64,000 nt of DNA from Acidobacteriota bacterium (GCA_039683095.1 JBDKSB010000012.1:92293-156292), one strand, 5' to 3'. Counted from the first letter of the stretch, positions 25,304 through 60,578 are shown. Made by a program: numbers and translations. The notes: a model not told the origin generated them from the sequence alone.

Positions 25304-25454
25304 ATCGCCGATCTCCAGAGGAAAATATACCACGTCCGGTTCGTTTCGCCAAACCCGCGAGGCCGGGGATGCGGGCCTTCTCGGCTCCCGTTGACAGGGT
25401 CCCCGGGCCGGGCTATAGTTCGGGAGCGACCACTCCACCGAGGAGGTCCTTCCC

Positions 25455-26381: not shown

Positions 26382-26398
26382 CAACTGGAGAGATCACC

Positions 26399-28740: not shown

Positions 28741-28744
28741 CGCT

Positions 28745-28888
28745 TCACTTGATCAGGAACAGGCGGAGAGCAAAGAGCACCAGGACGACGACCGGGCCGA
28801 TCCGGTCCCGGAGCCTCGTCCGCCCGAAGACGCCGAGGACGATGAGCCCGGCGAAATAAAGGACGATGAGGCGGTAAACTATGTCCAT
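28745..28888 (-). CDS. Small hydrophobic membrane peptide (47 aa, two predicted TM helices)
   Basis: MDIVYRLIVLYFAGLIVLGVFGRTRLRDRIGPVVVLVLFALRLFLIK. Starts 8 bp downstream of the transporter gene. Confidence 0.3.
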   Translation of the reverse strand: MDIVYRLIVLYFAGLIVLGVFGRTRLRDRIGPVVVLVLFALRLFLIK

Positions 28889-28896
28889 GCTCTCCT

Positions 28897-30165: not shown

Positions 30166-30190
30166 GCCCTCCGCCTTTCCGTCCCGGCCG

Positions 30191-30772
30191 TCAGGCCTTG
30201 GGCTTGAACGCGCTCTTCAGGACCTCGGCGGCTTCGGCCGTTTTCTCGACAGCCACGAGCGGGATGCCGCGGGCCCGGCAGATCTTCGAGAACAGGCCGT
30301 CCGCGTCAGCCGACTTGACGATGACGGCCATCCGGGCGGCCGGCAGGTACTCGGCGACCATGGCGTCGGTCAGCTCGCCGCGGCGCTGCTCCCCGCCGAG
30401 ATGGAGGAAGAGAACGGGGATCTTTCTCCTGGCCGCCTCGGCCAGAAGGGCCTTGACCCGCGCCTTTTCCTTGGCGGTGTCGAGGCCCGCCGCGCCGAGG
30501 CCTTTCAAGCTGGCCCCGACGACGAGGCCGAGCGTCCCGGCCCCGCCAAGGTCCCTGGCGGTGGCCAGTTTAGCCAATGTAGTCTCGATGCCGGCCCGCT
30601 TGGCCAGGACGACGGCCAGCTGGACGTCCGGGCTCTGGCCGGCCGAGGTGATGAGCATCGGCGGGTCGAAGACGGGGCCCTGGCCGGCGCCGGTTTGCGC
30701 CGCGGCGACCGGGAGAAGAGCCAGGGCCGCCGCGGCGGCCGCGGCTCCGGCGATGAACCGTAAGAACTTCAT
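30191..30772 (-). CDS. Secreted Ala-rich protein of unknown function
   Basis: Start MKFLRFIAGAAAAAAALALLPVAAAQ. Co-directional with the transporter gene. Confidence 0.45.
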   Translation of the reverse strand: MKFLRFIAGAAAAAAALALLPVAAAQTGAGQGPVFDPPMLITSAGQSPDVQLAVVLAKRAGIETTLAKLATARDLGGAGTLGLVVGASLKGLGAAGLDTAKEKARVKALLAEAARRKIPVLFLHLGGEQRRGELTDAMVAEYLPAARMAVIVKSADADGLFSKICRARGIPLVAVEKTAEAAEVLKSAFKPKA

Positions 30773-37576: not shown

Positions 37577-40390
37577 ATGCAAAAGAAGTTCAGCACATTG
37601 CTTCTCGTAGGTTTGTTGATTCTTCTCACTCAGGCTCTTGTAGCCCAGGAGACCGGCGAGATCTTAGGCAAGGTCACGGATGACGAAAGCGTGGGCCTGC
37701 CGGGGGTCTCGATCACCGCGACCAGCCCGAATCTCCAGGGCAAGAGGGCCGCCGTCAGCGACGCGAACGGAACCTTCAGGTTCCCCTTGCTTCCCATGGG
37801 GACCTACACGCTGACGCTCGAGTTGAAGGGGTTCTCGTCCCTGATGCTGGAGAATGTCGGCGTGAAGCTCGGCCTGGTGACGAGCCCGATAGCGGTCATG
37901 AAGCCGGCGACCGTCGACGCCCAGCTCACCGTCATCGCCGAGGCCCCTTTAATCGACAAGACGAAATCGGACACGTCGTTCAACGTCGATTCCAGGGAGC
38001 TGGCCCAGATGCCCATCCAGGGCCGGACCATCAATGAGGTCCTCAGCTACACGCCCGGCGTGACGGGCGTGCGCCACGACACCATCAAGGGAACGGGCAG
38101 CGGCGGAACCGACTACGGCGGCGGCAGCATCCGCGGCGAGGGGCCGAACGGGAACAACTGGCTCGTGGACGGGCTGTCCAAGAGGGCCTCGGCCAACAAT
38201 GGTTTCGGCACCAAGATCAACTTCGACGCCTGGGAAGAGGTCCAGATCATCTCCGACGGGTTCTCCCCCGAGCTGGGAGCCACGTACGGCGGGATCATCA
38301 ATATCGTGACCAAATCCGGCAGCAACCAGTTCCACGGCGAGATCGGCTCCCTGATCTGGGACCATAACCTCCGGGCTTCGCGGAAGCCCCAGATCGCGAT
38401 CGCCGTCGAGCCGGTCACGTCCCAGTACGATTTCTTCGGCAACATCGGCGGCCCCATCATCAAGGACAAGCTCTGGTTCTTCCTGTCCGACAACCTCTGG
38501 CGCAAGGCCGACGACAACGAAGCCAGCTCGGTCGGCTGGCTGGAGATCCCGGCGGGCCAGCGGCGGGTCAACAGCAACAACGTGCTCGGCAAGCTGACCT
38601 ATGCCCTGGCGGACAACCACACCCTGTCCTTCAGCGGATCCTATGATTCGTTCCTCAGCCAATCCGGCGGCTTCGGGCTGCCGGACCTCTATACCAAGGT
38701 GGACTACGAGGATTATGCCCTGCGCCTGAACTACAAGGGCATCCTCGGCGCCAACACCCTGATCGAGGCGGCCGTCGGGAGGAGCAGTCAAGACAGCGCG
38801 GACGCCCCCCTCGACGACGATTACGACAGCATCCGGTTCTCCTACTCCGACATCAACCAGGCCATGGGCAACGTCTCTTCGGCGTCCGGGGTCATCGACC
38901 AGAGGACGGATTTCACGACGAGATTCACCCAATACCTGAACACGGAAAAACTCGGGAACCACGAGATCGGCCTGGGCGCGGCCTATTCGTACATCTTCCG
39001 GAAGGCCTACAACCACTATACCGGAAGGGACTGGCTCATCGTGCCCAGCGACTACTGGACCGGCGGCTCGACCATCACCTTCACGGAGCAGGGCGTTCCT
39101 TACATGCTGACCCAGTACCGGGACCAGGCCTATTTCAACAAAGGCCGCATGTACTCGGCGTATGTGAAGGATAAGGTCACGTTCGGACGGTTGACCCTGA
39201 TGCTGGGCCTCCGCTCGGAGTCCCAGAGGATCTACGACGACCAGGGCGCCGTCGTTCATGAGATCAGCTGGGGGCTGGACAAGTTCCTGTCCCCGCGGGC
39301 CTCGCTGAGCTGGGATGTGACCGGCGACGGGGCCAACGTCATCAAGTTCGGTTTCGGCCGCTTCTCCGACACCATGATCTGGGACATCATGGGCTACTTC
39401 ACCCAGGGCGGACAGACGACCTTCGTCAAGTATGTTTGGAACGGCCCGACGCCGACCTATGATACGGATACGGAAGCCCTGAAGAACTTCGCCAACTGGA
39501 CCTACAGGTCCCAGCAGGGAGGAACGGATACGGTCCGGGCCTACAAGCGCGTCCGTGAGGGCACGGGCCCGGATTTCATGAACAAGTTCATCCTGGAATA
39601 CGACCGCCGCATCGGGGCAAATTGGGCGGCCAAGATCAGGGGCGTCCTTTCGACCCACCGCGACATGCTCGAGGACGTGGCTCTGTTCGACTACACGACC
39701 GCCTGGTACGAGCTTATCAATTGGGATCAGAAGAAACGGGATTACTTGGGCCTCGAGCTGGAGATCAACGGCCGGATCGGCGACAAGTTCATCCTGAACA
39801 GCTCCTACGTCTGGTCGTCGGCCAAGGGCTCGACCCCCGGCAACTCGGAATATGTCGGGAATTACGGCTGGTCGATGTACCAGACCAACGGCTGCTTCGG
39901 GGACCATTACTCCGGACCCGACGATTCCCCCCTGGCCGGACGCTACAACTGGTCCTACGGGTTCGGCGGCCTGGATTACGGCGACGAGGGCTGGTACGGC
40001 TACCTGCCCTACAGCTGCGACCATGTGGTCAAGGTCTTCGGCACCTACCTCGCGCCCTACGGCATCATGGTCAGCGCCAGCGCCCAGCTCTATGCCGGCT
40101 ATCACTGGTCGATCTGGGGCTTCCAGACGGGATACGGATCCTATTGCTACTTCCCGTACGGACGGGGGACGGAGACTGTCCCGGCCCATACTTACGTCGA
40201 TCTGACGCTCGAAAAGAGCTTCAAGATCGCGTCGAGGATGGTCGCCGGACTGCGCCTCAACGTCTCCAACCTCTTCAACTCGCAGCGTGCCGTTTCCTAC
40301 GGCAGCGGCGAGGGAAGCACGTTCTTCCGTCAAGTCTGGGGCCGGCAGTTCCCTCGCTGGGTTCAGCTCCAGGCAAGCCTCTCATTCTGA
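37577..40390 (+). CDS. TonB-dependent receptor with N-terminal carboxypeptidase-regulatory-like domain
   Basis: Signal peptide. CarbopepD_reg-like GKVTDDESVGLPGVSITATSPN...TDANGTFRF, then plug and beta-barrel. 937 aa. Confidence 0.85.
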   Translation: MQKKFSTLLLVGLLILLTQALVAQETGEILGKVTDDESVGLPGVSITATSPNLQGKRAAVSDANGTFRFPLLPMGTYTLTLELKGFSSLMLENVGVKLGLVTSPIAVMKPATVDAQLTVIAEAPLIDKTKSDTSFNVDSRELAQMPIQGRTINEVLSYTPGVTGVRHDTIKGTGSGGTDYGGGSIRGEGPNGNNWLVDGLSKRASANNGFGTKINFDAWEEVQIISDGFSPELGATYGGIINIVTKSGSNQFHGEIGSLIWDHNLRASRKPQIAIAVEPVTSQYDFFGNIGGPIIKDKLWFFLSDNLWRKADDNEASSVGWLEIPAGQRRVNSNNVLGKLTYALADNHTLSFSGSYDSFLSQSGGFGLPDLYTKVDYEDYALRLNYKGILGANTLIEAAVGRSSQDSADAPLDDDYDSIRFSYSDINQAMGNVSSASGVIDQRTDFTTRFTQYLNTEKLGNHEIGLGAAYSYIFRKAYNHYTGRDWLIVPSDYWTGGSTITFTEQGVPYMLTQYRDQAYFNKGRMYSAYVKDKVTFGRLTLMLGLRSESQRIYDDQGAVVHEISWGLDKFLSPRASLSWDVTGDGANVIKFGFGRFSDTMIWDIMGYFTQGGQTTFVKYVWNGPTPTYDTDTEALKNFANWTYRSQQGGTDTVRAYKRVREGTGPDFMNKFILEYDRRIGANWAAKIRGVLSTHRDMLEDVALFDYTTAWYELINWDQKKRDYLGLELEINGRIGDKFILNSSYVWSSAKGSTPGNSEYVGNYGWSMYQTNGCFGDHYSGPDDSPLAGRYNWSYGFGGLDYGDEGWYGYLPYSCDHVVKVFGTYLAPYGIMVSASAQLYAGYHWSIWGFQTGYGSYCYFPYGRGTETVPAHTYVDLTLEKSFKIASRMVAGLRLNVSNLFNSQRAVSYGSGEGSTFFRQVWGRQFPRWVQLQASLSF

Positions 40391-47641: not shown

Positions 47642-48020
47642 TTTTGATGGCGCCGGTCCTTCTTCCGCATCAGTCTGATCCCTCCGCCGAGCCTGGGCGG
47701 GAGCGGCAAGCTCATCTCTCTCCGAAGCGGATTGATCCGCCCGCAGACGTCGCGCCTTAAACGCCCGGCCTCCGGACCTTATCGAAACCGCCCGAAAACC
47801 CTGGGGGCGGATCGTCCGATCCAGGGCCCTTCGAATCCCGGGAGCGGCCTCCCGATCCGCCCGGCGCCTTGGATCCGCGGAAAGAACAGGCGAGGTCCAG
47901 ATTCAAAATTTCGCTTGCAATTCGTTTTTGTTGGCTGTTTATTATCGGATATATCAGACATAAACAATCGATTATGTGCGTTCTGCGCGATTTATTACCA
48001 AATTCTCAGGGAGGAGCTTC

Positions 48021-51000
48021 ATGAAGGTATCCTTGTCCCGTCCTCTGCTCGTTCTGCTAGCAGCACTCCTCGTCACGACCGCGGGCTACGCCCAGCGGCA
48101 GACCGGCTCGATCTCGGGCCGCGTCCTGGATGCGGAGAACAACCCGCTTCCCGGCGCGACCGTCAGCCTGTCGGGCCCGGCCATGATGGGGACGCAAGAC
48201 TTCGTTTCCTCCGAAACCGGCGCCTTCCGCTTCGCCGCCCTGTCGCCGGGCAGGGACTTCGAGCTCAAGGTCGCCCTGCCGGGCTTCAAGACGGTCATCC
48301 GGCCCGGACTCATCGTCGGCGTCGGGCGGACGACCGAGGTCGACATCGTCATGGAGATGTCCACGGTCTCCGAGGAGGTCACGGTGACGGCCCCCTCGCC
48401 CGTCGTCGACGTCCAGGCGACCAAGACCAACGTCAACTACAGCGCCCAGTTCCTGGCCAGCCTGCCCATGAACCGGGACCTCTATGACATCCAGAACTCG
48501 ATCCCCGGGGCCATCTCCGAGGGCGTCGAGTACCGCCGGACGTCGTCGATCCTCGGCGGCACGGTCCGCAGCCAGCTCTACGCCCTCGACGGCGTGCCCC
48601 TCAACGACCCGGCCACGAACTACTCGATGGCCAACATCAACGTCGACGTCTACGAGGAGATCGAGTTCGAGACCGGCGGCCACCCGGCCGAGGTCGGTCA
48701 GACCGACTCGACCTACGTCAACATCGTCACCAAGAGCGGCGGCAACAAGTTCAGCGGCGGCGTGACCTTCTACTACGCGAACAAGAACCTGGCCGAGAAC
48801 CTGATCTCCGACGAGCAGGTCCTGGCCCTGGGGGTCAATCCGCCCGAGAAGTTCACGGATTACAAGGACTTGTCCCTGAACCTCGGGGGACCGGTCATCA
48901 AGGACCGGCTCTGGTTCTTCGTCAACGGCCGCCGGCTGACGTACGAGCAGGCCAACCCGCTGACGCCCGAGAACCGCATGGCTAATCTCGGCATCGCCAG
49001 CACCCACTACGACATGAACCACCAGGAATGGCTTGGCTTCGGCAAGCTGACCTTCCAGATCACGCCCAAGCTCAAGTACTTCGGCATGCTCCACTACAAC
49101 CACCTCTACGAGCCGGTCTACAACAACAGCTTCGGCTCGGACGCCGACTTCTCCTACACGCGCATCTGGGACCACGAGAACACCTACACGACGACGCACC
49201 AGTTCAACTGGATCATCAACCAGGACACGTTCCTCGACATCCGCGGCACCTATGTCTGGCGCAACTTCCCCCTCCACTCGCGCAACGAAGGCGAGTACAC
49301 CTACTACGACAACACCCAGAAGGTCTATTGGGGGACGGCCGGCTACAACGACGATTACATCCGGAAAAAGACCCTGGCCTCGGTCTCGGCGACCCGCTTC
49401 CAGGACGACTTCCTCGGGGCCAGCCACGAGTTCAAGGCGGGCTTCGAGTTCGAGCAATCCGAGTATCACCGGGACTGGTACAGGGCCAACCCCTACTACT
49501 CCTACTGGGCCAACTACGCGACCGGCAACCCCTACTATTACAACACGAGCACACGCCAGGGGCGCCTGCGCATCCGGACCTGCCCGGACAGCGCCGGCCA
49601 GTGGGACGTCCAGGACCACATCCGCCGCTTCTCGGGCTATCTTCAGGACAGCGCCCGGACGGGCCGCTGGACCATCAACGTCGGGCTGCGGCTCGATTAT
49701 TCCTATCAGTACGAGCCGCCGCAGTCCCGGCCGGAGCTCCGCTATAACTACGGCCCCGAGCTGCTCAACCCGGTTTACGGCTCCGAGAATCCGAACATCC
49801 TGCTCGAGGCTCTCATCGATCAGATCCAGACCGACCCGGCGATGGGCATCTCGCCCTGGGACGCCCTGGCCCTGACCCAGACCAAGACGGTCGTCTCCTT
49901 CACCACCCTTTCGCCCCGGCTCGGCGTCGTCTACGACGTGTTCGGGAACGGCAAGACCGCGATCAAGGCCTCCTTCGGCCGCTACTACGAGCCGGTCTGG
50001 GCGTCCAAGTACAACGGCGGCCAGATCTTCGGCGCCACCACCTTCGATTTCCGTTGGAACGACCGCAACGCCAACGGTCTGATGGACCTGCCGGCCGACG
50101 GCGACACCTATGTCCTGAGCTCCTACCAGGAACAGGATCCGACATTCAACTACTACGCCGAGAACCTCAAGACCCCCTACACGATGGAGCTGTCGCTCGG
50201 CGTCGACCAGGAGCTGGCCAAGGACTTCCGGATCGGCGGGCAGTTCCTCTACAAGATCAGCAAGAACATCGTCGACGACGTCGACATGTACAACGGCTAC
50301 GACCCGACGCTGACCGACGAGAACGGGCTCGTCTGGCTGCCCTACGACGCGACCGATCCCGGCTGGGACGGCGTCTTCGGCACCGGCGACGACAAGACCA
50401 TCACGGTCTACGGCCTCCGCGATGACCGCCCCGTGCCGACCATGTACGGCGTCAATCCGGCCGGGGCCAAGCGGCAATACTGGGCCGGCATCTTGACCTT
50501 CGACAAGCGGATGAGCCACCGCTGGCAGTTCAAGGGCTCCATCCTCTACGGCCGGTTCAAGGGCAACTGCGACCCCGGCTACTCCGCCACCGAGGGCGAA
50601 TCGACGATGTTCGACGATCCCAACACGCTGACCTACGCCTACGGCTCGGTCTCCTTCGACCGGCCCTTCCAGCTCAAGCTAATGGGCACCTACGTCCTGC
50701 CCTACGACATCATCATCAGCGCCTACCTCCAGGCCCGGAGCGGCTCCGGCTGGGGACGGACCTTCGACCGCGTCTACTTCCCGAGCGGCTTCGGAGCCCA
50801 GTCGACGTACGCCAGCAGCATCCGGACCGAGCCCGACGGCTCGCGCTGGACGCCGTCCTACACCAACCTCGACCTCCGTCTGGAGAAGGAATTCGTCTTC
50901 GCCAAGAAGGTGAAGCTCAGCGTCTACGCCGACGTCTTCAACCTGGCCGGGCGCAGCGGCATCAACATCAACGAAAACCCTTACGCCCGCCTGTACTCGG

Positions 51001-51101
51001 CGGCGACCACGCCCTACCAGACATTGAGCACGACCTACAAGCAGATCACCAGCGTCTACGGCGTCCGTTCCGTCCGGCTGGGCGCCCGAGTCACGTTCTG
51101 A
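48021..51101 (+). CDS. TonB-dependent receptor with carboxypeptidase-regulatory-like N-domain
   Basis: RBS GGAGGAG. Signal peptide MKVSLSRPLLVLLAALLVTTAGYAQ. GRVLDAENNPLPGATVSL CarbopepD_reg motif. About 1026 aa. Confidence 0.85.
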   Translation: MKVSLSRPLLVLLAALLVTTAGYAQRQTGSISGRVLDAENNPLPGATVSLSGPAMMGTQDFVSSETGAFRFAALSPGRDFELKVALPGFKTVIRPGLIVGVGRTTEVDIVMEMSTVSEEVTVTAPSPVVDVQATKTNVNYSAQFLASLPMNRDLYDIQNSIPGAISEGVEYRRTSSILGGTVRSQLYALDGVPLNDPATNYSMANINVDVYEEIEFETGGHPAEVGQTDSTYVNIVTKSGGNKFSGGVTFYYANKNLAENLISDEQVLALGVNPPEKFTDYKDLSLNLGGPVIKDRLWFFVNGRRLTYEQANPLTPENRMANLGIASTHYDMNHQEWLGFGKLTFQITPKLKYFGMLHYNHLYEPVYNNSFGSDADFSYTRIWDHENTYTTTHQFNWIINQDTFLDIRGTYVWRNFPLHSRNEGEYTYYDNTQKVYWGTAGYNDDYIRKKTLASVSATRFQDDFLGASHEFKAGFEFEQSEYHRDWYRANPYYSYWANYATGNPYYYNTSTRQGRLRIRTCPDSAGQWDVQDHIRRFSGYLQDSARTGRWTINVGLRLDYSYQYEPPQSRPELRYNYGPELLNPVYGSENPNILLEALIDQIQTDPAMGISPWDALALTQTKTVVSFTTLSPRLGVVYDVFGNGKTAIKASFGRYYEPVWASKYNGGQIFGATTFDFRWNDRNANGLMDLPADGDTYVLSSYQEQDPTFNYYAENLKTPYTMELSLGVDQELAKDFRIGGQFLYKISKNIVDDVDMYNGYDPTLTDENGLVWLPYDATDPGWDGVFGTGDDKTITVYGLRDDRPVPTMYGVNPAGAKRQYWAGILTFDKRMSHRWQFKGSILYGRFKGNCDPGYSATEGESTMFDDPNTLTYAYGSVSFDRPFQLKLMGTYVLPYDIIISAYLQARSGSGWGRTFDRVYFPSGFGAQSTYASSIRTEPDGSRWTPSYTNLDLRLEKEFVFAKKVKLSVYADVFNLAGRSGININENPYARLYSAATTPYQTLSTTYKQITSVYGVRSVRLGARVTF

Positions 51102-51113
51102 CCGTTCATTCCG

Positions 51114-51139
51114 GAGGGGGGACCAGCGGGTCCCCCCTC
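51114..51139 (+). terminator. Hairpin GAGGGGGGACC-agcg-GGTCCCCCCTC
   Basis: 11-bp perfect stem 12 bp after the receptor stop. Confidence 0.6.
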
Positions 51140-51165
51140 CCATCTTTCCTGAGGATGAGTTCTCC

Positions 51166-52785
51166 ATGATCCAGCCGGCTGCCATCGTCAAGCGGACAGC
51201 GGCGCTCCTGGCCGCGCTCCTCCTCCTTCTCGCCCTTCCGGCCCCGGCGCGGGCCGAGGACTGCACGACGGCCGTCGTCTCCGGCGCCGCGACGCCGGAC
51301 GGCCGCCCCCTGCTCTGGAAGAACAGGGACGTCGACAACCAGGACGTCAAGCTGGCCTACATCTCCGACGGCCCCCTGGCGGCCGTCGCCCTGGTCGACG
51401 TGGGCGGCTCCGCCTCCGTCTGGATGGGGGTCAACGAGGCCGGATTCGCCGTCGAGAACTCGAATTCCGAGGATCTCGAGGGGACCTCGAACGGCGGGAA
51501 CGGATCGTTCATGAGGCAGGCCCTGCTCACCTGCGCGACCGTGGACGCCTTCGAGGCCCTGCTCGTCCAGACGAACGCGACCGGGCGCTCGACCCAGGCC
51601 AATTACGGCGTCATCGACGCCTCCGGGGCCGCGGCGATATTCGAGGTCGGCAATCACACCTACCGCAAGTACGACGCGGCCGATCCGGAGGATGCGCCCA
51701 TGGGGTTCATCGTCCGGACGAACTTCGCCTTCACCGGCGACGGCTCCGGAACGGGCCAGGTCCGCTATGACCGGGGCGTCGAGCTCCTCAACGGGGCGGC
51801 CCTGGCGGGCGGCCTGACGCACGACTTCCTGCTCCGGCGCGCGGCCCGCGACCTCAAGAACGACGCCGTCGATCCCTATCCCCTGCCCTACGAGTCCGGG
51901 CAGGATGGCCGCCCGGCGGGCTTCATCCGGACCGTCTATTCGATCAACCGGACCTCGACGGCCGCCGCCGCGGTCTTCCGCGGCGTCCGGAGCGGCGAAG
52001 AGCCCGGGCTGACGACCATGTGGACGATCCTCGGCGAACCCGTCTGCTCGGTCGCCCTTCCCGTCTGGCCGCTGGCCGGCGCCGTGCCGGCCGGCCTCGG
52101 CGGGACGTCGCGGGCCCCCCTCTGCGACGCGGCCATCGTCCGGAAGGGCCTCTGCTACACCCTGCCGACCAGCCCGGATTACATCGACACGAAGGCTCTC
52201 GACGACGGCCTCGGCGGCGGCATCTTCGCCTGGACGGCGGCGATCGAAGACTGGGCGCTGGCCCGGGCGGAAGCGGCCCTGTCCGGATGGCGCGAAGCCC
52301 CGCCAACGCCTCAGGCGGCCGCCGGATTCCAGGACGAGCTGGCCCGGCAGGCTTATTGGTGCTTCCTGGCCTCGTCCGTCCCCAACGACACTCTTCCGGC
52401 GCCGCGGGAGCTGGCCTGCCGCGTGCGCGAGAACCGCTCGCTCATCCTCCGCGAATACGTCCACGTCCTGACCTGGCTCGCCCCGGTCGCGGGATCGCCG
52501 GCCGCCTACAGGATCTACGACGTCACCGCAGGCGGCCGGACGCTCTTGGCCGAGGTCCCCGCCGGGACCCTTTCGTATCTCCGGCGGCGAGTGGACCGGA
52601 CTGCGGGAACGGCCTACGCCGTCCTGGCCGTGGACGCGACGGGAGCCGAGGGCAGCCCGGCCTGCCTCGGGCCCGGCGCCGCGGCCGCGACGGTCGCGGG
52701 ACCGGCCTCGCGCTCCGTCCGCCCGCGCAAAGCGCTGCAGGGGACGTCGACGGCCCTCCGCAAGCTCGGCCAGGCCGGCGCTTGA
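51166..52785 (+). CDS. Secreted Ntn-hydrolase (peptidase C69 dipeptidase / choloylglycine-hydrolase-like)
   Basis: Signal peptide ending AEDC, then CTTAVVSGAATPDGRPLLWKNRD, the N-terminal nucleophile Cys pattern of C69/Ntn enzymes. Confidence 0.6.
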   Translation: MIQPAAIVKRTAALLAALLLLLALPAPARAEDCTTAVVSGAATPDGRPLLWKNRDVDNQDVKLAYISDGPLAAVALVDVGGSASVWMGVNEAGFAVENSNSEDLEGTSNGGNGSFMRQALLTCATVDAFEALLVQTNATGRSTQANYGVIDASGAAAIFEVGNHTYRKYDAADPEDAPMGFIVRTNFAFTGDGSGTGQVRYDRGVELLNGAALAGGLTHDFLLRRAARDLKNDAVDPYPLPYESGQDGRPAGFIRTVYSINRTSTAAAAVFRGVRSGEEPGLTTMWTILGEPVCSVALPVWPLAGAVPAGLGGTSRAPLCDAAIVRKGLCYTLPTSPDYIDTKALDDGLGGGIFAWTAAIEDWALARAEAALSGWREAPPTPQAAAGFQDELARQAYWCFLASSVPNDTLPAPRELACRVRENRSLILREYVHVLTWLAPVAGSPAAYRIYDVTAGGRTLLAEVPAGTLSYLRRRVDRTAGTAYAVLAVDATGAEGSPACLGPGAAAATVAGPASRSVRPRKALQGTSTALRKLGQAGA

Positions 52786-52868
52786 CGACGCCGCTCCCCT
52801 CGCGTGATGAGACGCCGTTTGGCAAGGCCGCATCCTTGTCATACAATAAGGCCCTTCGGACCGGACGC

Positions 52869-54998
52869 ATGAAAGCGCACAGACCGCCGCGGACGTTGCT
52901 CATCGCCGCCGCGCTGGCCCTTCTCGCCGGGGCCGTCCGGCCGGGCCGGGCCGAGGGCCGGCGAGCGAACCTGCTGCTCATCACCGTGGACACACTGCGG
53001 GCCGACCGGCTGAGCTGCTACGATCCGGCCCATGTCGCCACGCCTGCCATGGACGGGCTCGCGGCCTCGGGCCTGATCTTCGACCGCGCCTTCTCGCACG
53101 TCCCGCTGACCCTGCCGGCGCACGCCAGCCTTCTCCTCGGCATGACGCCGCCGGCCCACGGCGTCCGCGACAACGGCCGCTTCGTCGCCGCCGAAGGGTC
53201 CTTGACGCTGGCCGAGCTGCTGAAGTCGCACGGCTACGCCACGGCGGCTTTCGTCGGCGGCTATCCCCTGCACTCCCGCTTCGGCCTGGCCCAGGGCTTC
53301 GAGGTCTACGACGACCGGTTCGCCGCGGCCCCGGGCCTGGGCCGGGAATTCGCCGAGGCCCCGGCCGGCGCCGTCGCCGACAAGGCCCTGGCCTGGCTCG
53401 AGGGCCGGCGCGAGCCCTGGTTCCTCTGGGCCCACTTCTACGATCCGCACGATCCCTACGACCCGCCGGAGCCGTACCGGTCGCGGTTCAAGGACGCCCC
53501 CTACGACGGCGAGGTGGCCTACGTCGACGCGACGATCGGCCGCCTCCTGGCCCGCCTCCGGGACCTCGGCCTGCAGGGAAGGACGGTGATCGTTCTGACC
53601 GGGGACCATGGCGAATCCCTCGGCGACCACGGCGAGCTGACGCACGGCTTCCTGGCCTGCAACTCGACGCTGTGGGTGCCGCTTGTCATCGCCGCGCCGG
53701 CCGTCCGGCCCGGCCGGACCGGCGAAGTCGTCTCCCACATCGACGTCTTCCCGACCGTCTGCGATCTCCTGGCCATCCCCAAGCCCGCCGGGCTCGAAGG
53801 ACGGTCGCTAGCTCCCGCCCTGGCCGGCCGGAAGCTGGCGCCCGCGCCGGTCTACTTCGAGTGCCTCTCGCCCTACTACGGCCGGGGCTGGGCGCCCCTG
53901 CGCGGTTTTCTCGACGGGCGCATGAAGTTCGTCGATTCGCCCGTGCCCGAGCTCTACGATCTCCGCGGCGACTTCGGCGAGGCCCGCAACCTGGCCGCCG
54001 GCCGGGACCTGTCGGCCTACCGCAAGGCCCTGGCGCGGCTGGCCCGGGAGGATATGCCGGTCGGCGGTTCCGGGACGGGGGCCAAGCTCGACGCGGCGGC
54101 CGTCGAGCGGCTGCGCAGCCTGGGCTACGCGGCCGGGCCGGCCGCGCCGAAGAAGGCCGCCTTCGGACCGGCCGATGACGTCAAGGCGCTCCTCCCCCAT
54201 CACACCAAGGCCATGCGGGCCCTCGTCCTGAGCCGCGATGGCCGGGCCGGTGAGGCCGTCAGGATGCTCCAGGAGGTCATCGCGGCCCGGCCGGATCTCG
54301 ATGTCGCCCGGGTCAACCTGGCCCTCGTCTACGAAGCCGCGGGCCGGACCGGCGAGGCCCGGCAGGTGCTCATGGAAAGCCTCCGCGCCCTGCCTGAAAG
54401 CTACGACGTTTTCGCCCACGCCGCGAGCTTTCTCATCGCGGCCGGCGAGTTCCGTGAGGCCGCCTCGCTCATCGAATCCCGTTCCCTGCCGCAGATGGAG
54501 AGCGACCCGAAGATCTGGGTCGACCTCGGGCTCTGCTGCAGGAACCTGAAGGATTATGCCAAGGCCAGGACCGCCTATGAAGCGGCCCTGGCCGTCGACC
54601 CGACGTATCCCGTCGTCTATAACAACCTGGGGACGCTCGAGCTCGCCCTCCTCGAGGAAGGCCGCGATCCCGGCGCGGCCGGGAAGGCCGCGGCCCACTT
54701 CGAGAAGGCCATCGCCCTCGATCCCGGCTACGCCGCCGCCTATTACGGGCTGGGCCAGGCGCGCTACCGGGCCGGACGCCTCGACGAGGCCATCGCCGCC
54801 ATGACGGCGGCCGCCGCCCTCGATCCCGGGCTTCTGGACGCCAAGTTCTATCTGGGCCTGGCCCTTTACCGGCAGAAGCGCTTCGCCGAGGCCCTCGGCC
54901 CGCTCGTAGCCTACCGGGAGAAGGCCGGGAGCGATCTCGACGCCGCCGACCTGAGGAAGCTCGACGGGATAATCGCGGAATGCCGAGCCCGGAAATGA
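52869..54998 (+). CDS. Sulfatase-family (alkaline-phosphatase superfamily) enzyme fused to C-terminal TPR repeats
   Basis: Signal peptide. LLITVDTLRADRLSCYDP (CxxxR-like formylglycine context), GDHGE, C-terminal TPR units. Confidence 0.75.
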   Translation: MKAHRPPRTLLIAAALALLAGAVRPGRAEGRRANLLLITVDTLRADRLSCYDPAHVATPAMDGLAASGLIFDRAFSHVPLTLPAHASLLLGMTPPAHGVRDNGRFVAAEGSLTLAELLKSHGYATAAFVGGYPLHSRFGLAQGFEVYDDRFAAAPGLGREFAEAPAGAVADKALAWLEGRREPWFLWAHFYDPHDPYDPPEPYRSRFKDAPYDGEVAYVDATIGRLLARLRDLGLQGRTVIVLTGDHGESLGDHGELTHGFLACNSTLWVPLVIAAPAVRPGRTGEVVSHIDVFPTVCDLLAIPKPAGLEGRSLAPALAGRKLAPAPVYFECLSPYYGRGWAPLRGFLDGRMKFVDSPVPELYDLRGDFGEARNLAAGRDLSAYRKALARLAREDMPVGGSGTGAKLDAAAVERLRSLGYAAGPAAPKKAAFGPADDVKALLPHHTKAMRALVLSRDGRAGEAVRMLQEVIAARPDLDVARVNLALVYEAAGRTGEARQVLMESLRALPESYDVFAHAASFLIAAGEFREAASLIESRSLPQMESDPKIWVDLGLCCRNLKDYAKARTAYEAALAVDPTYPVVYNNLGTLELALLEEGRDPGAAGKAAAHFEKAIALDPGYAAAYYGLGQARYRAGRLDEAIAAMTAAAALDPGLLDAKFYLGLALYRQKRFAEALGPLVAYREKAGSDLDAADLRKLDGIIAECRARK

Positions 54999-55001
54999 AA
55001 C

Positions 55002-56024
55002 ATGGAGGTTGACATGCGTTGCTGCTCACGCCGCGCGGCCGTCCTCGCGGCGGCTGTCGCTCTGGCCTTCGCCTGCGCCCTGACGGCCGCCCCGCCGCTC
55101 GCGGCCCAGGAGAACATCGGCCGCGGCCGGATCACCGGCCAGGTCGTCGACGAGACGGGCCAGCCACTGGCCGGGGCGAAGATCGTGGTCCAGATCGTCG
55201 ACGGGACGACCCGGCTCGAAGGGATGTCGGACAAGAAGGGCCGCTTCGCCGTGGCCGGCATGGGCACGGGACGGTGGCGCGTCACGGCGACCCTCGAAGG
55301 CCATGCCGACTCGTTCGTCGAGATGTCCATCAGCCAGGTCCGGCCCAATCCGGCCGTCACGCTGACGCTGAAGAGCGCCGGCGGCCGGGGGTTCCAGGCC
55401 GACCCCGAGAGCCTGGCCGCCCTCGACCGGGCCACCGCCCTCGAAAAGGAGGGCCGGCTCGACGAGGCCCTGGCCGAGCTCGAGGGCTTCCTTCGGAAGT
55501 ACCCGGACATCTTCCAGGTCCGGACCAACCTCGGCGCCATCCGCCTCGAGAAGGGCGACCTGGCCGGCGCCGAAGCCGAGTTCCGGGCCGTCCTGGACGC
55601 GACCGCCGGGGCGGCGGGCCAGCTGCCCAAGGACAAGGCCTCGGCCGCCCGCGCCTTGACCGGCCTGGGCGAGGTCGCGCTCAAGAAGGACGACCTCGGG
55701 ACCGCGGTCCGGTCCTTCAGCGACGCCCTGGCCCTCTCGCCCGACGACGAGGCCGCGGCCTACAACGTCGGCGAGATCCTGTTCTCGAACCAGAGGATCG
55801 ACGAGGCCATCAGCTACTTTGAAATGGCCATCCGGATCAACAAGGATTGGCCCCGGCCCTATCACAAGCTCGGGTTCGTCCATCTCAACAAGGGCGAATA
55901 CGACCAGGCCCTCGAGTTCTTCCGTAAGTTCCTCGAGCTCGACCCCGAGGGCCCGGAGGCGCCCGCCGTCAAGAACGTCATGGAGGCCATTGCCAAGATG
56001 AAAAAGTCCGGAGAGCCCCGATGA
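55002..56024 (+). CDS. Secreted CarbopepD_reg-like domain plus TPR protein
   Basis: GRITGQVVDETGQPLAGAKIVV...DKKGRF, then TPR units. Start may be 55014. Confidence 0.6.
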   Translation: MEVDMRCCSRRAAVLAAAVALAFACALTAAPPLAAQENIGRGRITGQVVDETGQPLAGAKIVVQIVDGTTRLEGMSDKKGRFAVAGMGTGRWRVTATLEGHADSFVEMSISQVRPNPAVTLTLKSAGGRGFQADPESLAALDRATALEKEGRLDEALAELEGFLRKYPDIFQVRTNLGAIRLEKGDLAGAEAEFRAVLDATAGAAGQLPKDKASAARALTGLGEVALKKDDLGTAVRSFSDALALSPDDEAAAYNVGEILFSNQRIDEAISYFEMAIRINKDWPRPYHKLGFVHLNKGEYDQALEFFRKFLELDPEGPEAPAVKNVMEAIAKMKKSGEPR

Positions 56025-57709
56025 TCGCCGGGGGATCCTTTGTCCGCCGGGCGGCCGGTCCGGCCGCCGTCCTCCTCCTCGGCCTGTCGGCCGCCTGCGC
56101 CGGGAGCCGGCCGGTCGGTCCGGGCGACGTCGTGGCCGGCCGGGCCATGGTCGCCTCGGCCCACCCCGCCGCCACGGCCGTCGGCCTCGAGATCCTCAAG
56201 AAGGGCGGCAACGCCGTCGATGCCGCCGTGGCCACGGCTTTCGCCCTGAGCATGGCCGAGCCGAACGCCTCGGGCGTCGGGGGCGGCGGCTTCATGATCA
56301 TCAAGATGGCCGGCCAGCCCGGGGCGGTCATGATCGATTACCGGGAGACGGCCCCCCGCAACGCGACGCCGGAATATTACTACGGGGCGGGCCCGTCCTT
56401 CGACGCCCGGACGGCCGAGGGGCCGGACGCGGTCGGCGTGCCCGGGCTGGTCGCCGGCGCCGCCCTGGCCCTGGACAAGTACGGCACGATGAGCCTGGCC
56501 CGGGTCCTCGAACCGGCCATCCGGCTCTGCCGGGAGGGCGTCACGGTCAGCCCGAAGCTCAACGGGATGATCGTCGAGAACATGGAAAAGATCCAGAAAT
56601 ACCCGGCCGCGGCGGCCATCTACCTGCCGGACGGCCTGCCGGCCGAGCCAGGGGCCGTGCTTCGCAACGAGGACCTGGCCGTGACGCTGGAGAGGATCGC
56701 GGCCGGCGGGCCGCGCGTCTTCTACGAAGGCCCGACGGCCGAGGCTGTCGCCGCCGAGCTCCGGCGGCTGGGCGGGGTCATGGAGGCCGCGGACCTAGCC
56801 GGCTACCGGGCCAAGCTCCGGACACCCGTCACCGGGACCTACCGCGGCTACGAGATCCTGTCGGCGGCGCCGCCGACGGGCGGCGGCACCCACCTCGTCG
56901 AGCTCCTGAACATCATCGAGGGCTTCGACGTGAAAAGCATGGGTCCGGGGAGCGCCCGGCTCATCCACGTCCTGGCCGAGGCCATGAAGATGATCTACGC
57001 CGACAAGGCCGTCAATTCCGGCGACCCCGACGTTTTCGACATCCCCGTGGCCGCACTGACCGACAAGGCCTACGCCGCCAGGCTGCGGGACCGGATCGTC
57101 GAGGCGAAGGCCCGCTTCGATTACGCCCCGCCTTCGCTCGTCGGCAGGGAGAGCGAGAGCACCTCCCACCTGTCCGTCGCCGACGAGAAGGGCAACGTCG
57201 TCGCCCTGACCCAGAGCATCAACAGCTTCTTCGGCTCGGGCGTCGTCGTCCCCGGCACGGGCATCATCCTCAACAATCACCTGGCTGATTTCGACAGCCA
57301 GGCCGGCGGCCCGAACGCCATCGGCCCGGGCCGGCGCCCGGCCAGCAGCATCGCCCCGACGGTGGTCTGCCGGTCCGGGAAGCCGGTCCTGGTCCTGGGC
57401 TCGCCCGGCGCGGCCCGGATCGTTTCGGCCCTGGCCCAGATCGTCATCAACTTCGTCGATTTCGGCATGGGCCTGGACGAAGCCATCGAGGCGCCGCGGG
57501 TGCACTGCCTGACAAAAACCCTGGCCGTCGAGGGGCGCATCCCCGGCGAGGTCGTCAAGACGCTCGAGTCCTGGGGGCACAAGGTCAAGGTCTATCCGGA
57601 CTGGGACAACTATTTCGGGGGAGCCCAGGGGATCTTTCTCGACGCCCGGGCCGGGAGGATCTGCGGCGCGGCCGACTCCCGCCGGGACGGCGCGGCCGCG
57701 GGCTATTGA
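56021..57709 (+). CDS. ggt: Gamma-glutamyltranspeptidase
   Basis: Signal peptide. Autocleavage and nucleophile site TSHLSVADEKGNVVALTQSIN. GGT-family small-subunit motifs. Confidence 0.9.
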   Translation: MIAGGSFVRRAAGPAAVLLLGLSAACAGSRPVGPGDVVAGRAMVASAHPAATAVGLEILKKGGNAVDAAVATAFALSMAEPNASGVGGGGFMIIKMAGQPGAVMIDYRETAPRNATPEYYYGAGPSFDARTAEGPDAVGVPGLVAGAALALDKYGTMSLARVLEPAIRLCREGVTVSPKLNGMIVENMEKIQKYPAAAAIYLPDGLPAEPGAVLRNEDLAVTLERIAAGGPRVFYEGPTAEAVAAELRRLGGVMEAADLAGYRAKLRTPVTGTYRGYEILSAAPPTGGGTHLVELLNIIEGFDVKSMGPGSARLIHVLAEAMKMIYADKAVNSGDPDVFDIPVAALTDKAYAARLRDRIVEAKARFDYAPPSLVGRESESTSHLSVADEKGNVVALTQSINSFFGSGVVVPGTGIILNNHLADFDSQAGGPNAIGPGRRPASSIAPTVVCRSGKPVLVLGSPGAARIVSALAQIVINFVDFGMGLDEAIEAPRVHCLTKTLAVEGRIPGEVVKTLESWGHKVKVYPDWDNYFGGAQGIFLDARAGRICGAADSRRDGAAAGY

Positions 57710-57737
57710 GATCTCGAAACGAACGGAGGCTGATATC

Positions 57738-58763
57738 ATGAAAAGATCGACGGCTTCGATCCTGACGCTTTTCGCGGCCCTGGCCGCGTTCTCCTGCGCC
57801 AAACCGGCGAAAAGCCGCGAGGCCCTGATCGAGGAGGTCCTGTTAAAGAAGCAGGACGTCACCATCGTGGTCACGGACTCGGGACTGGGCGGGTTGTCGG
57901 TCGCGGCCGACATCGCCGCCCGGCTGCCGGGCAGCGGCGTCTTTCGCCGGGCCCGCATCGTTTTCTACAACGCCCTCTTCGACAACCTCGGCTACAACGG
58001 CTTGGCCTCCGAAGCCGAGAAGGACCGCATCTTCGACGTCGTTCTCCGGGCCATGAAAAAGCGCTACCGGCCCGACATCCTGCTCATCGCCTGCAACACC
58101 CTGTCGGTCGTCTACGACCGGACGGCCTTCTCCCGAAAAGCGCCCTTCCCGGTGGTCGGCATCGTCGATACGGGCGTCGACCTCATCGCCCGGCAATTCG
58201 AAAAGACCCCCGGGGCCACGGCCATCCTCTTCGGGACGAAGACCACGATCGAGAACGAAGCGCACAAGAAGGCCCTCGTGGCCCGGGGGTTCCCGGCCGA
58301 ACGGATCGTCGGCCAGGCCTGCCACAAGCTGGCCGGGGCGATCGAGCGGGGCATCGCGACGGAGGAGACGGTGGGTTACATCCGCCGGTTCGTGGACGAG
58401 GCCCTGGCCAAGACCGGCCCCGCCGCCGGGCCCCTGTTCGCCAGCTTCAACTGCACCCACTACGGCTACGCCCGGCAGCAGTTCGCCGAGGCCTTCGCCG
58501 CGGCCGGGCGCCCGGGGATCGAGCTCCTCGATCCCAACCCGCTCATGGGCGACGTCCTCTTCCGGCCGGCCTATCTCCACAGGCATCCGCGGACTGAGGT
58601 GGCCGTCGAGGTCGTCTCCAAGCTGGAGATCACCGAGCAGGAACGCGGGGCCATCGGGCCGCTCCTCGAAGCGGTCTCCCCGGCCGTGGCCGCGGCCTTC
58701 CGGAACTACACCCTCGACCCGAAGCTCTTCGAGGTCGCCTTCGAGCGGCCGAAGAAGAAATAG
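57738..58763 (+). CDS. Exported glutamate-racemase homologue (Asp/Glu racemase superfamily) with lipoprotein signal
   Basis: Signal and lipobox MKRSTASILTLFAALAAFSC. VTDSGLGGLSV (MurI DSGxGG), ILLIACNTLS (catalytic Cys1), FNCTHYGY (catalytic Cys2 CTHY). Confidence 0.65.
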   Translation: MKRSTASILTLFAALAAFSCAKPAKSREALIEEVLLKKQDVTIVVTDSGLGGLSVAADIAARLPGSGVFRRARIVFYNALFDNLGYNGLASEAEKDRIFDVVLRAMKKRYRPDILLIACNTLSVVYDRTAFSRKAPFPVVGIVDTGVDLIARQFEKTPGATAILFGTKTTIENEAHKKALVARGFPAERIVGQACHKLAGAIERGIATEETVGYIRRFVDEALAKTGPAAGPLFASFNCTHYGYARQQFAEAFAAAGRPGIELLDPNPLMGDVLFRPAYLHRHPRTEVAVEVVSKLEITEQERGAIGPLLEAVSPAVAAAFRNYTLDPKLFEVAFERPKKK

Positions 58764-58778
58764 GACTCCGGGCGCCGG

Positions 58779-60578
58779 TCAGCGGCCGAGGACCTTCCCG
58801 GCCAGCGTCCCGGTGAAATTCCCGCCGTCGAGGACCATCCGGCCGTTGATGAGGAGATGGCGGACCCCCCGGCTGAGCCGGTGCGGGGCCGAGATCGAGG
58901 ACGGCACGGCGATCCCCTTGAGGTCGAGGACGACGATGTCGGCCGCCGCGCCCTCGGCGATCCGCCCCCGGTCTGGCCAGTTCATGATATCGGCCGGGAG
59001 CGACGTCTGGGAGCGGATGGCCTGGGCCAGCGTCAGGACCTTGCGTTCCAGGGCGTATCTCTGGATCTTGTAGAGGAACGTCGAGTAGGAGCGGGGATGC
59101 GGCCGGTCGACCCCGTAGACGGGCAGGATGCCGTCGCTGCCCGTGGCCACGTAGTCCTTCTTCATGACGGCCTCGATGTCCGGCTCGCACATGTTGAAGG
59201 GGACGGCCAGCGTCCCGGCCAGCTCCAGCTCGATGGCCGTGTCGACGACCGTCTTGTTCCGCAGGGCGGCGACGGCCGCCAGGGACTTCCCTTCGATCGA
59301 CTCGTCGGCCGCGATGGCGATGATCATGTTCTCCGCGCCGACATCGTCGTAATAGGCCTGGATGGCGGCGCGGATGGCCCGGGCCTCCTCCGGCTGGCCC
59401 AGGCGCCGGACGAAGAGGGCCCGTTCCCTCTCGTTCGCGGCTCCCCGCGTCCGTCCCTCGAGTACGGCCGCCGCGACGAGGTCGACGAAGCGGTCCCGCG
59501 GCAGGCCGTTCAGGAAAGCGAGGTGTGGCGGCGACAGCGGGACCCAGGGCGTGCACTTGGCGTAAAGCTCGAGCAGCTCGGCGTCGCGGATATGGGCGAA
59601 GGCCCGGCTCAGATCGGCCGTCCCGAGGCCCGGCTCGCCGCCGCGCCAGGCCTCGGCCGGAACGAGCGGCGAGTACGGCTCGGTGTTGGAGAAGCGGTAG
59701 GGGTATTGGTCGGCCGTGATCTTGAGCCCGCGGGCCCGGGCCGCCTCGATCAGGCGCATGGCCTCCCCGACCAGGCCCCAGTTGGCCCGGCGCATGACCT
59801 TGAAGTGGGAGATGTTGGCCCGCACGCCGGCCCCTTCGGCTATGGCGATGCACTCCCCGACGGCCTCGAGCAAACGGCCACGCTCGTTGCGGACGTGGGA
59901 GTGGTAGATGCCGCCGTATGGGGCGATGACCTTGACCAGCTCGAGGATCTCGTCGGTCTTGGCGTAAAGGCCGGGCCGGTAGATGAGCCCGGTCGAGAGG
60001 CCGACGGCGCCCTGCTCCATGGCCTCTTTGACCAGGGCTTTCATCCGCCCGAGCTCGTCCGGCGTCGGCGCCCGGTCCTCCATGCCCATGACGAGCTGGC
60101 GGACCTGGCCATGGCCGACGAGCAGGGCGATGTTCAGGCCGACGCCCTCGTCCGTGAAGCGCCGGATCTGGTCGGAGGCCTTCTCGAAGATGGGCCAGGC
60201 GCTCGAGCCGCACTGCCCGGCGACGAGCGTCGTCACGCCCTGGGTCAGGTAGCCCAGCGGGGCCCGGTGCTCGGGAAAGACCAGGGCCCGGTCGACGTGG
60301 GTGTGGAGGTCGATGAAGCCCGGCGCGACGTAGAGGCCGCGGGCATCGATCGTCCGGGCGGCCGGGCCACGTAGGGACGGCGCGACCCGGACGATGCGGC
60401 CGTCCTTGACCGCGATGTCGGCCCGGAAGGCCGGCTTCAGCGACCCGTCGAGGACGAGGCCGTTCTTGATGAGGATGTCGAAGTCCGGGCCGGCGGCGGC
60501 CAGCCGGTTCGGGGCGCCGGCGGCCAGGCCGAGCGCCAGGGCCAGGAGGACGGAGAGGCGAACGGGGCGGCGTTCCAT
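58779..60578 (-). CDS. N-acyl-D-amino-acid deacylase (D-aminoacylase) family amidohydrolase, secreted
   Basis: Start MERRPVRLSVLLALALGLAAG (signal peptide). GFIDLHTHVD metal-binding motif. 599 aa. The upstream part of the track ORF is artefact. Confidence 0.8.
   Translation of the reverse strand: MERRPVRLSVLLALALGLAAGAPNRLAAAGPDFDILIKNGLVLDGSLKPAFRADIAVKDGRIVRVAPSLRGPAARTIDARGLYVAPGFIDLHTHVDRALVFPEHRAPLGYLTQGVTTLVAGQCGSSAWPIFEKASDQIRRFTDEGVGLNIALLVGHGQVRQLVMGMEDRAPTPDELGRMKALVKEAMEQGAVGLSTGLIYRPGLYAKTDEILELVKVIAPYGGIYHSHVRNERGRLLEAVGECIAIAEGAGVRANISHFKVMRRANWGLVGEAMRLIEAARARGLKITADQYPYRFSNTEPYSPLVPAEAWRGGEPGLGTADLSRAFAHIRDAELLELYAKCTPWVPLSPPHLAFLNGLPRDRFVDLVAAAVLEGRTRGAANERERALFVRRLGQPEEARAIRAAIQAYYDDVGAENMIIAIAADESIEGKSLAAVAALRNKTVVDTAIELELAGTLAVPFNMCEPDIEAVMKKDYVATGSDGILPVYGVDRPHPRSYSTFLYKIQRYALERKVLTLAQAIRSQTSLPADIMNWPDRGRIAEGAAADIVVLDLKGIAVPSSISAPHRLSRGVRHLLINGRMVLDGGNFTGTLAGKVLGR

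Follow-up and report, generated by a model that had tools for sequence, protein, structure and literature searches.

What would a bacterium gain by exporting a homologue of glutamate racemase, the textbook cytoplasmic enzyme of cell-wall synthesis? The question is raised by a 64,000-nucleotide stretch of DNA, called here the window (GCA_039683095.1, JBDKSB010000012.1:92293-156292), from a Candidatus Aminicenantes bacterium (Acidobacteriota), with its best protein and locus matches, at 93-97% identity, in Aminicenantes or Acidobacteria metagenome-assembled genomes (MAGs); taxon labels throughout are those on the MAG records. Open reading frames (ORFs) were called with the guidance of GC content at third codon positions (GC3), and products were named by profile searches (Pfam, NCBIfam). 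A sequence-only reading of the window had grouped an exported C69/Ntn-type (N-terminal nucleophile) hydrolase, a gamma-glutamyltranspeptidase (GGT), a glutamate racemase (MurI) homologue and a deacylase of N-acyl-D-amino acids into a periplasmic module for scavenging D-glutamyl peptides, and all of the genes that it listed are present where it placed them. The conserved core is smaller. It consists of a GGT that lacks the lid loop and is probably a lipoprotein (56021-57709, plus strand) and an exported lipoprotein MurI homologue encoded immediately downstream (57738-58763, plus strand, with GGAGG 8 nt 5' of its ATG); the unusual point is the export of a MurI homologue at all. That this core would serve a periplasmic module that frees, racemises and imports glutamate from gamma-glutamyl material containing D-glutamate (D-Glu), a substrate that we infer, has in our estimate an even chance of being right.

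The MurI-like protein does not reach the glutamate racemase equivalog model (TIGR00067, 68.6 bits against a cutoff of 146.65), so it is regarded as a member of a distinct subfamily rather than as an equivalog; it passes Pfam Asp_Glu_race (PF01177, 36.9 against a cutoff of 31) and shares about 20% identity with solved MurI structures. An AlphaFold model built from 56 homologues (mean predicted local distance difference test, pLDDT, of 93.3) has the two-domain alpha/beta fold of MurI. When this model was compared with the PDB using Foldseek, the best 41 matches were all glutamate racemases (E = 5e-12 to 3e-8; template-modelling (TM) score 0.66-0.80, normalised to target length), and aspartate racemases ranked behind them. 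The two cysteines of the active site, C119 (IACNT) and C239 (NCTHY), are invariant among the 56 homologues and lie in motifs that align with the equivalent motifs of PDB 3UHF and 2DWU. D47, S48, Y86, N120, T121, T167, T169, T170 and T240 are likewise invariant, conservation reaches at least 90% for E203 and H241, and the motifs DSGLGG, G-Y-N, IACNT, GTKTT, AIE and NCTHY are invariant or nearly so. In HMMER alignments, these conserved residues correspond to catalytic and substrate-binding motifs of PDB MurI structures; D47, S48, Y86, T167, T170, E203 and H241 we take to be the counterparts of MurI helper and substrate-binding residues (Asp-Ser of DSGxGG, Tyr of PYG, GTxxT, Glu and His). The protein keeps the complete MurI catalytic apparatus, and racemase activity is predicted for it.

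Export had been claimed for each of the listed enzymes, and the claim held: all seven proteins encoded between 47976 and 60578 have an N-terminus in which two or three basic residues precede a hydrophobic stretch. The adjoining SDR and histidine ammonia-lyase have no comparable basic-hydrophobic N-terminus, and export-type N-termini are kept in orthologues at other loci. A lipobox-like Cys closes the hydrophobic stretch in GGT (LSAAC) and in the MurI-like protein (AAFSC). By a crude heuristic 23 of the 40 genes in the window encode exported proteins, so a run of seven signal peptides is by itself weak evidence and not statistically striking. The family-wide pattern is more telling for the racemase homologue, whose lipobox Cys20 occurs in all of a set of 13 homologues and is kept in at least 90% of the 56. 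The MurI-like family forms three clades in a simple neighbour-joining tree, and an N-terminal export signal is found in all three, as a lipobox or, in much of clade II, as an AxA-type site. As the type of signal switches between clades while export is retained, this constitutes good evolutionary evidence that the MurI-like protein functions outside the cytoplasm. Some more distant relatives have no signal. Many of those at 33-45% identity (among P0244-P0389) start at about query residue 38-42 and are without a signal peptide, and one relative, P0388, is a protein of 1104 aa whose residues 755-1065 form the MurI-like domain. The exported proteins are thus one branch within a larger MurI-like family, as yet uncharacterised.

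The family is widespread: a scan of a collection with a single genome for each species gave 381 matching stretches, and an exhaustive profile-free search gave 252 clusters at 50% identity (E <= 1e-30). The carriers in the scanned collection belong to Acidobacteriota (Aminicenantes, Thermoanaerobaculia, Holophagales, Vicinamibacteria), KSB1, Zhuqueibacterota and Calditrichia. Nothing in the literature searched described a glutamate racemase that is exported, periplasmic or secreted, or a racemase in Aminicenantes, and a MurI-fold enzyme placed in a new compartment with conserved GGT and transporter partners would appear to be new.

The identity of the neighbouring GGT is secure, as it scores 494.7 bits against a cutoff of 357.85 with TIGR00066 and matches T03 (PF01019) over its full length. 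Its nucleophile is Thr381 (in TSHLSV), with which residue 1 of the small subunits in the PDB aligns, and its small subunit aligns without gaps to those of Bacillus subtilis and Bacillus licheniformis GGT (3A75/4OTT). The lid loop (Pro438-Gly449 in Escherichia coli) is absent, there being a 10-residue deletion relative to the E. coli GGT sequence, with which the PDB alignment lengths agree; the spacer at this position is 11 residues rather than 21, and is the same in every linked GGT that the search pattern could read. The lid loop favours transpeptidation, and the Bacillus GGTs, which are without it, possess an open cleft that suits poly-gamma-glutamate as a polymer; Bacillus GGT frees both D- and L-glutamate (L-Glu) from the polymer's amino end, bacterial GGTs take D-glutamine as a gamma-glutamyl donor, and D-gamma-glutamyl donors are also accepted (PMC8062742). 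The absence of the loop, as in the Bacillus poly-gamma-glutamate degraders, fits polymer or peptide substrates, in agreement with the kind of substrate that the sequence-only reading had in mind; the particular ones that it named (poly-gamma-D-glutamate, muropeptides and N-acyl-D-amino acids) may be considered candidates.

Neighbours were counted within 10 kb of the MurI-like gene at the 31 non-redundant loci of clade I, the clade of the window, which comprise 15 Aminicenantes-type and 16 KSB1/Zhuqueibacterota-type loci. GGT is the commonest neighbour in clade I and occurs at 25 of the 31 loci, compared to none of the 56 in clades II and III. When GGT and/or a four-gene transporter operon (described below) are counted, the figures become 27/31 and 0/56, and at each of the four exceptions one of the flanks is no longer than 1.3 kb. 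Strong linkage of GGT to the exported MurI-like gene thus recurs in two phyla and in varied arrangements, the KSB1/Zhuqueibacterota-type genomes having a GC content of 37-56% and rearranged gene orders. GGT may be directly upstream, or a second GGT paralogue (30-39% identical) may be directly downstream. At L085/L086 (8231-12906) GGT genes flank the MurI-like gene on both sides; the one upstream is an orthologue with 61% identity, the one downstream a paralogue with 37%. The differing gene orders argue for selection rather than inherited synteny. The MurI-like genes of clades II and III are accompanied by genes for glyoxalase-like proteins, a Na/H exchanger, an MFS transporter, an SDR and a sigma factor, and no common theme was found among these neighbours. 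Clade II is made up of Thermoanaerobaculia, Holophagales and related MAGs, and at 10 of its loci the MurI-like gene is followed, after a median of 88 bp, by an ORF of 383 aa (e.g., L070 8164-9315), which shares its strand in nine cases; this ORF has no Pfam match and may be a different partner for this clade.

In other genomes, the second partner conserved with the pair is the four-gene operon. In the window it occupies 27616-30772 on the minus strand and begins with an exported DUF6305 protein (30191-30772; Pfam E = 3.5e-44, with signal peptide and synteny in support), followed by a DctM-like permease of the tripartite ATP-independent periplasmic (TRAP) large-subunit/ion-transporter superfamily (28897-30165), an unannotated 47-aa ORF with two hydrophobic segments (28745-28888; MDIVYRLIVLYFAGLIVLGVFGRTRLRDRIGPVVVLVLFALRLFLIK) and an AstE/AspA-like zinc deacylase or carboxypeptidase, exported or membrane-anchored, with H-x-x-E ... 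H motifs (27616-28740). The AstE/AspA-family gene had been seen as merely lying nearby; it belongs to this transporter operon, which adjoins the pair in other genomes. The operon is divergent from the MurI-like gene at L003, L004 and L087, convergent with it at L089, L080 and L088, and co-directional at L016, L017, L022, L047 and L084, the last of which has on one strand the six genes MurI-like, DctM-like, AstE-like, DUF6305, GGT and a second AstE-like. Small ORFs homologous to the 47-aa ORF are found at L084, L087 and L089, and its product may be a small transporter subunit. Nothing on DUF6305 was found in the literature searched. At L087, a LexA/Y-family polymerase pair and a DnaE2-like polymerase gene directly abut the AstE/DctM/DUF6305 operon; the window has a LexA gene and a Y-family (IMS) polymerase gene at 2996-4947 on the minus strand.

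The other members of the proposed module are less constant. Six genes are co-directional on the plus strand from 47976 to 58763, and the last four are closely packed, with gaps of 3, -4 and 28 bp. The first encodes a TonB-dependent receptor (47976-51101, likely start Met at 48021; CarboxypepD_reg, Plug and OMP_b-brl_4 domains in Pfam) with the signal peptide MKVSLSRPLLVLLAALLVTTAGYAQ; orthologues occur at L001, L007, L008, L079, L080 and L088, and the receptor is a lineage-specific accessory, upstream of the pair in seven Aminicenantes-type loci. Between it and the next gene, inside the co-directional run, a consensus scan placed a perfect GC-rich hairpin of 12 bp followed by a T-rich tail, resembling a terminator or attenuator (51113-51140, plus strand).

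The second gene (51166-52785) encodes an exported Ntn hydrolase with a putative nucleophile, Cys33, lying in ARA-ED-C-TTAVVSG behind the signal peptide, and orthologues preserve [ED][ED]-C-TTAV at this place. The C69 label was dropped, since Pfam C69 gave no hit and AAT (PF03417), a weak match, was the sole Pfam family at E <= 0.01; the protein is best described as C45/AAT-like, matching NCBIfam C45_proenzyme at E = 3.5e-14 (52.9 bits, under the cutoff of 85). No match was obtained among PDB sequences. A sigma-70-like promoter match (TTGGCA-17-TACAAT, 10 of 12 positions; consensus scan, 52819-52847, plus strand) precedes the run of four genes that follows, the first of which (52869-54998) encodes an exported protein with a 'Sulfatase' Pfam domain, of the alkaline-phosphatase superfamily, and TPR repeats. 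That this is a true sulfatase was rejected, because T-L-P-A-H stands in place of C/S-x-P-x-R (S-T-P-A-R in 7OZ8 and A-S-P-A-R in 4UPH in PDB alignments), so that no formylglycine could be formed, and all NCBIfam sulfatase models score far under their cutoffs. It is probably a Thr-nucleophile hydrolase or transferase of the alkaline-phosphatase superfamily, judging from its motif. In the orthologue at L080 the motif also starts HVPLT. The next gene (55002-56024), which starts 3 bp past the 'sulfatase'-TPR gene and overlaps the start of GGT by 4 bp, encodes an exported CarboxypepD_reg-TPR protein and is absent from L080 and L088.

The D-aminoacylase homologue (58779-60578, minus strand) is also exported, and converges on the MurI-like gene across a gap of 15 bp. 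It is closest to the D-aminoacylase of Alcaligenes faecalis (PDB 1M7J, E = 2e-67) and the N-acyl-D-Glu deacylase of Bordetella bronchiseptica (Bb3285, 3GIP, E = 2e-61), and the amidohydrolase metal ligands (HxH, Cys, His, His, Asp) all align with those of 1M7J. Unlike these enzymes (about 480-496 aa) it has a signal peptide and a length of 599 aa (603-604 aa in orthologues), and its alpha/beta lid region exceeds that of solved D-acylases by about 100 aa: the alignment stops after the YPY motif, and residues 299-427 have no counterpart. In known D-acylases the lid sets specificity, through Arg295 in Bb3285 and Leu298 in 1M7J (PMC12149444). Its gene lies 8 bp 3' of an SPFH gene on the minus strand, with SDR and histidine ammonia-lyase genes further upstream, and this position, on the strand opposite to the core pair, assigns it to another transcription unit. 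The homologue foreseen by the sequence-only reading is accordingly present and exported, and is not part of the same unit as the cluster. Orthologues hold the same convergent position at L079, L080 and L088.

These features bring in the explanation that the five grouped enzymes are together through shared Aminicenantes ancestry and not joint function. The orientation of the D-aminoacylase gene behind SPFH, the terminator-like hairpin after the receptor gene, the promoter-like site before the 'sulfatase'-TPR gene and the restriction of the accessory genes to one lineage are all in its favour. The D-aminoacylase homologue abuts the MurI-like gene at 9 of the 15 Aminicenantes-type and 0 of the 16 KSB1-type loci, and the receptor/Ntn/'sulfatase'-TPR block is present at 7/15 and 0/16. 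A first impression from the one-genome-per-species collection, that accessory genes were limited to the closest relatives, was overturned by metagenome contexts at 63-73% identity. L080 and L088, with MurI-like proteins 63-66% identical, keep the series receptor-Ntn-'sulfatase'-GGT-MurI-like-D-aminoacylase-AstE-DctM-DUF6305, and L080 has a GC content of 47%, against 68% in the region of the window and in L001, a close relative of the window; persistence of the sets at these two loci indicates more than very recent shared ancestry, and the genes are still lineage-specific accessories. The D-aminoacylase homologue, moreover, abuts the MurI-like gene convergently whichever gene lies upstream of it, be it SPFH (window), one for a 146-aa protein (L079) or one for an AstE-like protein (L080, L088). 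Inherited synteny is therefore possible for the accessory genes; it fails for the GGT-MurI-like pair, which recurs, rearranged, in KSB1/Zhuqueibacterota-type genomes, and as an account of the whole group we think it improbable. Co-conservation of the enzymes, as supposed in the sequence-only reading, thus extends across two phyla for GGT and the exported MurI-like gene and stays within one lineage for the rest: export, the GGT-racemase idea and the class of substrate survived, the membership of the other enzymes had been overstated, and two family names, C69 and sulfatase, were wrong.

Several other genes recur around the pair. In KSB1-type loci, the SPFH/NfeD and S58 peptidase genes that lie downstream were taken as synteny and not as partners. 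Exported Peptidase_C26/GATase-like proteins (gamma-glutamyl-hydrolase family) are encoded with a DUF6786 protein beside the cluster at L080 (15674-16798) and L088 (17855-20280), and in the KSB1-type L018 and L019 genes for DUF6786 and a GHL10 glycosidase-like protein are directly upstream of the MurI-like gene.

A second explanation is that this is a general peptide- or debris-degrading neighbourhood without a shared D-glutamyl substrate, in which GGT would act on glutathione or gamma-L-glutamyl peptides, the MurI-like protein on Asp, on an N-acyl or gamma-glutamyl derivative or on a peptide-bound residue, and the D-aminoacylase, Ntn and 'sulfatase'-TPR proteins on unrelated compounds. The abundance of exported proteins in the window, the sub-cutoff TIGR00067 score and low identity of the MurI-like protein to solved MurI, and the variable presence of accessory genes among relatives are as expected under this explanation, and the D-aminoacylase family includes carbohydrate de-N-acetylases (PDB 9KB1; PMC12017989). 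Against it, all residues of the MurI-like protein that align with catalytic and substrate-binding motifs of MurI are conserved, glutamate racemases clearly outrank aspartate racemases in the fold search, and GGT is the most frequent neighbour in clade I, with two GGT paralogues each linked to a MurI-like gene. We consider it unlikely, if the strongest of the competing explanations.

How, then, might the D-glutamyl module work? D-Glu-containing gamma-glutamyl material, in the form of poly-gamma-glutamate fragments and/or peptidoglycan stem peptides, would reach the periplasm, in this lineage probably through the adjacent TonB-dependent receptor. Accessory amidases could then trim it, the D-aminoacylase homologue taking an N-acyl group or L-Ala off D-Glu and the C45-like Ntn hydrolase acting on other amide bonds. 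GGT would cut the gamma-glutamyl bond from the free amino end to give D- or L-Glu, and the exported racemase would convert D-Glu into L-Glu. The DUF6305/DctM-like/47-aa/AstE-AspA-like operon would import the product and further deacylate related compounds. N-acyl-D-Glu deacylases also accept L-Xaa-D-Glu. On a stem-peptide route, the D-aminoacylase homologue could strip L-Ala from L-Ala-gamma-D-Glu-meso-diaminopimelate (mDAP), GGT could split the remaining gamma-D-Glu-mDAP, and the racemase could turn the D-Glu into L-Glu. A route from poly-gamma-glutamate oligomers would be equally coherent.

A number of observations weigh against this module. The operon of the window is 27 kb from the GGT-MurI-like pair, and a fold search with the AstE-like model gave weak, non-specific matches in the M14 clan (AstE, DoeB, Csd4, MpaA, CphZ; TM-score 0.35-0.46). 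The D-aminoacylase homologue has a lid unlike any characterised one, and both it and the Ntn hydrolase are missing in the close relatives L002, L006, L083, L087 and L089 and at all KSB1-type loci. The cluster of the window yielded no endo-poly-gamma-glutamate hydrolase, muramidase or amidase. Signal peptides were judged by a hydropathy heuristic and by conservation among orthologues. A racemase relying on two thiols could be inactivated in an oxidising periplasm, and such an enzyme is plausible there only because the lineages concerned are mainly anaerobes. Finally, clades II and III have neither GGT nor the transporter as partner, so the family must also have a role that is independent of GGT.

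The last point bears equally on a third explanation, periplasmic production of D-Glu, in which the exported racemase would make D-Glu from L-Glu, including L-Glu freed by GGT from glutathione-like compounds, for wall editing, signalling or gamma-D-glutamyl transfer by GGT. Racemases are reversible, and two exported clades are without catabolic neighbours. The periplasmic racemases known to us are enzymes dependent on pyridoxal 5'-phosphate (PLP), and those of the broad-spectrum BsrV type are not known to act on the acidic amino acids Glu and Asp, which would leave a niche for a MurI-like family. Production of D-Glu would parallel the release of D-amino acids by these PLP-dependent periplasmic broad-spectrum racemases, and regulatory periplasmic racemases are known (PMC3037491). 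In clade I, however, the partners are a hydrolase without the lid loop that favours transpeptidation (PMC8062742) and a permease/deacylase operon, to which the Aminicenantes-type loci add a TonB-dependent receptor and amidases; this is an architecture of uptake and degradation, and it makes D-Glu production in our judgement a quite unlikely explanation of the locus.

The D-glutamyl module, if it exists, would resemble several known systems in part. The cytoplasmic MurI/RacE enzymes (B. subtilis RacE, 1ZUW; Helicobacter pylori MurI, 2JFX) have the same fold as the MurI-like protein and the same ACNT and CTH cysteines, DSGxGG, Tyr, GTxxT and Glu/His helpers. Unlike them, the MurI-like protein carries an export signal with lipobox; its model shows an additional linker helix and ends in a beta-alpha-alpha extension of about 50 aa at the C-terminus, and its gene adjoins GGT and transporter genes rather than those of cell-wall synthesis. 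The extracellular GGT of B. subtilis and B. licheniformis, which works alongside the endo-hydrolase PgdS, is secreted and lid-less like that of the window; in Bacillus, the freed D-Glu is handled by cytoplasmic racemases, whereas here the racemase is exported with GGT, and the window showed no homologue of PgdS or PghP. BsrV-type racemases are likewise periplasmic amino-acid racemases of a diderm bacterium, but they have a PLP-dependent alanine-racemase fold and release D-amino acids, in contrast to the cofactor-independent two-thiol MurI fold and degradative gene context of the MurI-like protein. Murein-peptide recycling in E. coli (MpaA, the L-Ala-D/L-Glu epimerase YcjG, and PepD) and the DgcN/DgcA pathway also recover L-Glu from D-Glu-containing material; they are cytoplasmic and invert a dipeptide or N-acetyl-Glu and not free Glu. 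No homology to YcjG-type or DgcN/DgcA epimerases was found among the genes of the window, and the AstE-like protein's weak fold matches, mentioned above, include MpaA and Csd4 of the M14 clan. The dgcN route has been described as costly and indirect (PMC12363236).

The remaining neighbours that the sequence-only reading had mentioned, an S41 peptidase (6554-7627), an exported creatininase-family protein (25455-26381), HtrA (about 26648-27613) and a second TonB-dependent receptor (37577-40390), are all present. The S41 peptidase gene lies in a segment (6001-8000) with a GC fraction of 0.535, against 0.65-0.71 in its flanks, which may have been horizontally acquired. The creatininase and HtrA genes, together with one for a 146-aa protein, form a block (24866-27613) that adjoins the AstE operon in the window and the D-aminoacylase and GGT-MurI-like genes at L079; at L003 and L004 the creatininase gene does so. 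Gene blocks around the pair have been shuffled among Aminicenantes genomes. A protein encoded at 21814-23520 on the minus strand combines TPR with multiple ankyrin repeats behind a signal-peptide-like N-terminus, a combination uncommon in bacteria.

Returning to the exported racemase homologue, the wider proposal that suggests itself is that clade I represents a true periplasmic, cofactor-independent glutamate racemase which, with the lid-less GGT and a dedicated DUF6305/DctM-like importer, would provide a hitherto unrecognised extracytoplasmic route turning gamma-D-glutamyl material of necromass into importable L-Glu in anaerobic sediment and sludge bacteria (Aminicenantes, KSB1, Zhuqueibacterota). 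We advance this tentatively, with rather less confidence than the module itself. For the glutamate racemase family, a widespread exported branch whose conserved partner is GGT would mean a new cellular location and a catabolic role, and DUF6305 and an unstudied DctM-like/AstE-like operon would gain a context. The exported racemase, and the D-acylase with its novel lid domain, would also be candidates for biocatalysis. If the proposal is true, it would offer a molecular handle on the turnover of D-amino-acid necromass and a testable mechanism by which uncultured anaerobes could use the D-glutamate locked in peptidoglycan and poly-gamma-glutamate, a long-discussed sink of carbon and nitrogen in sediments.

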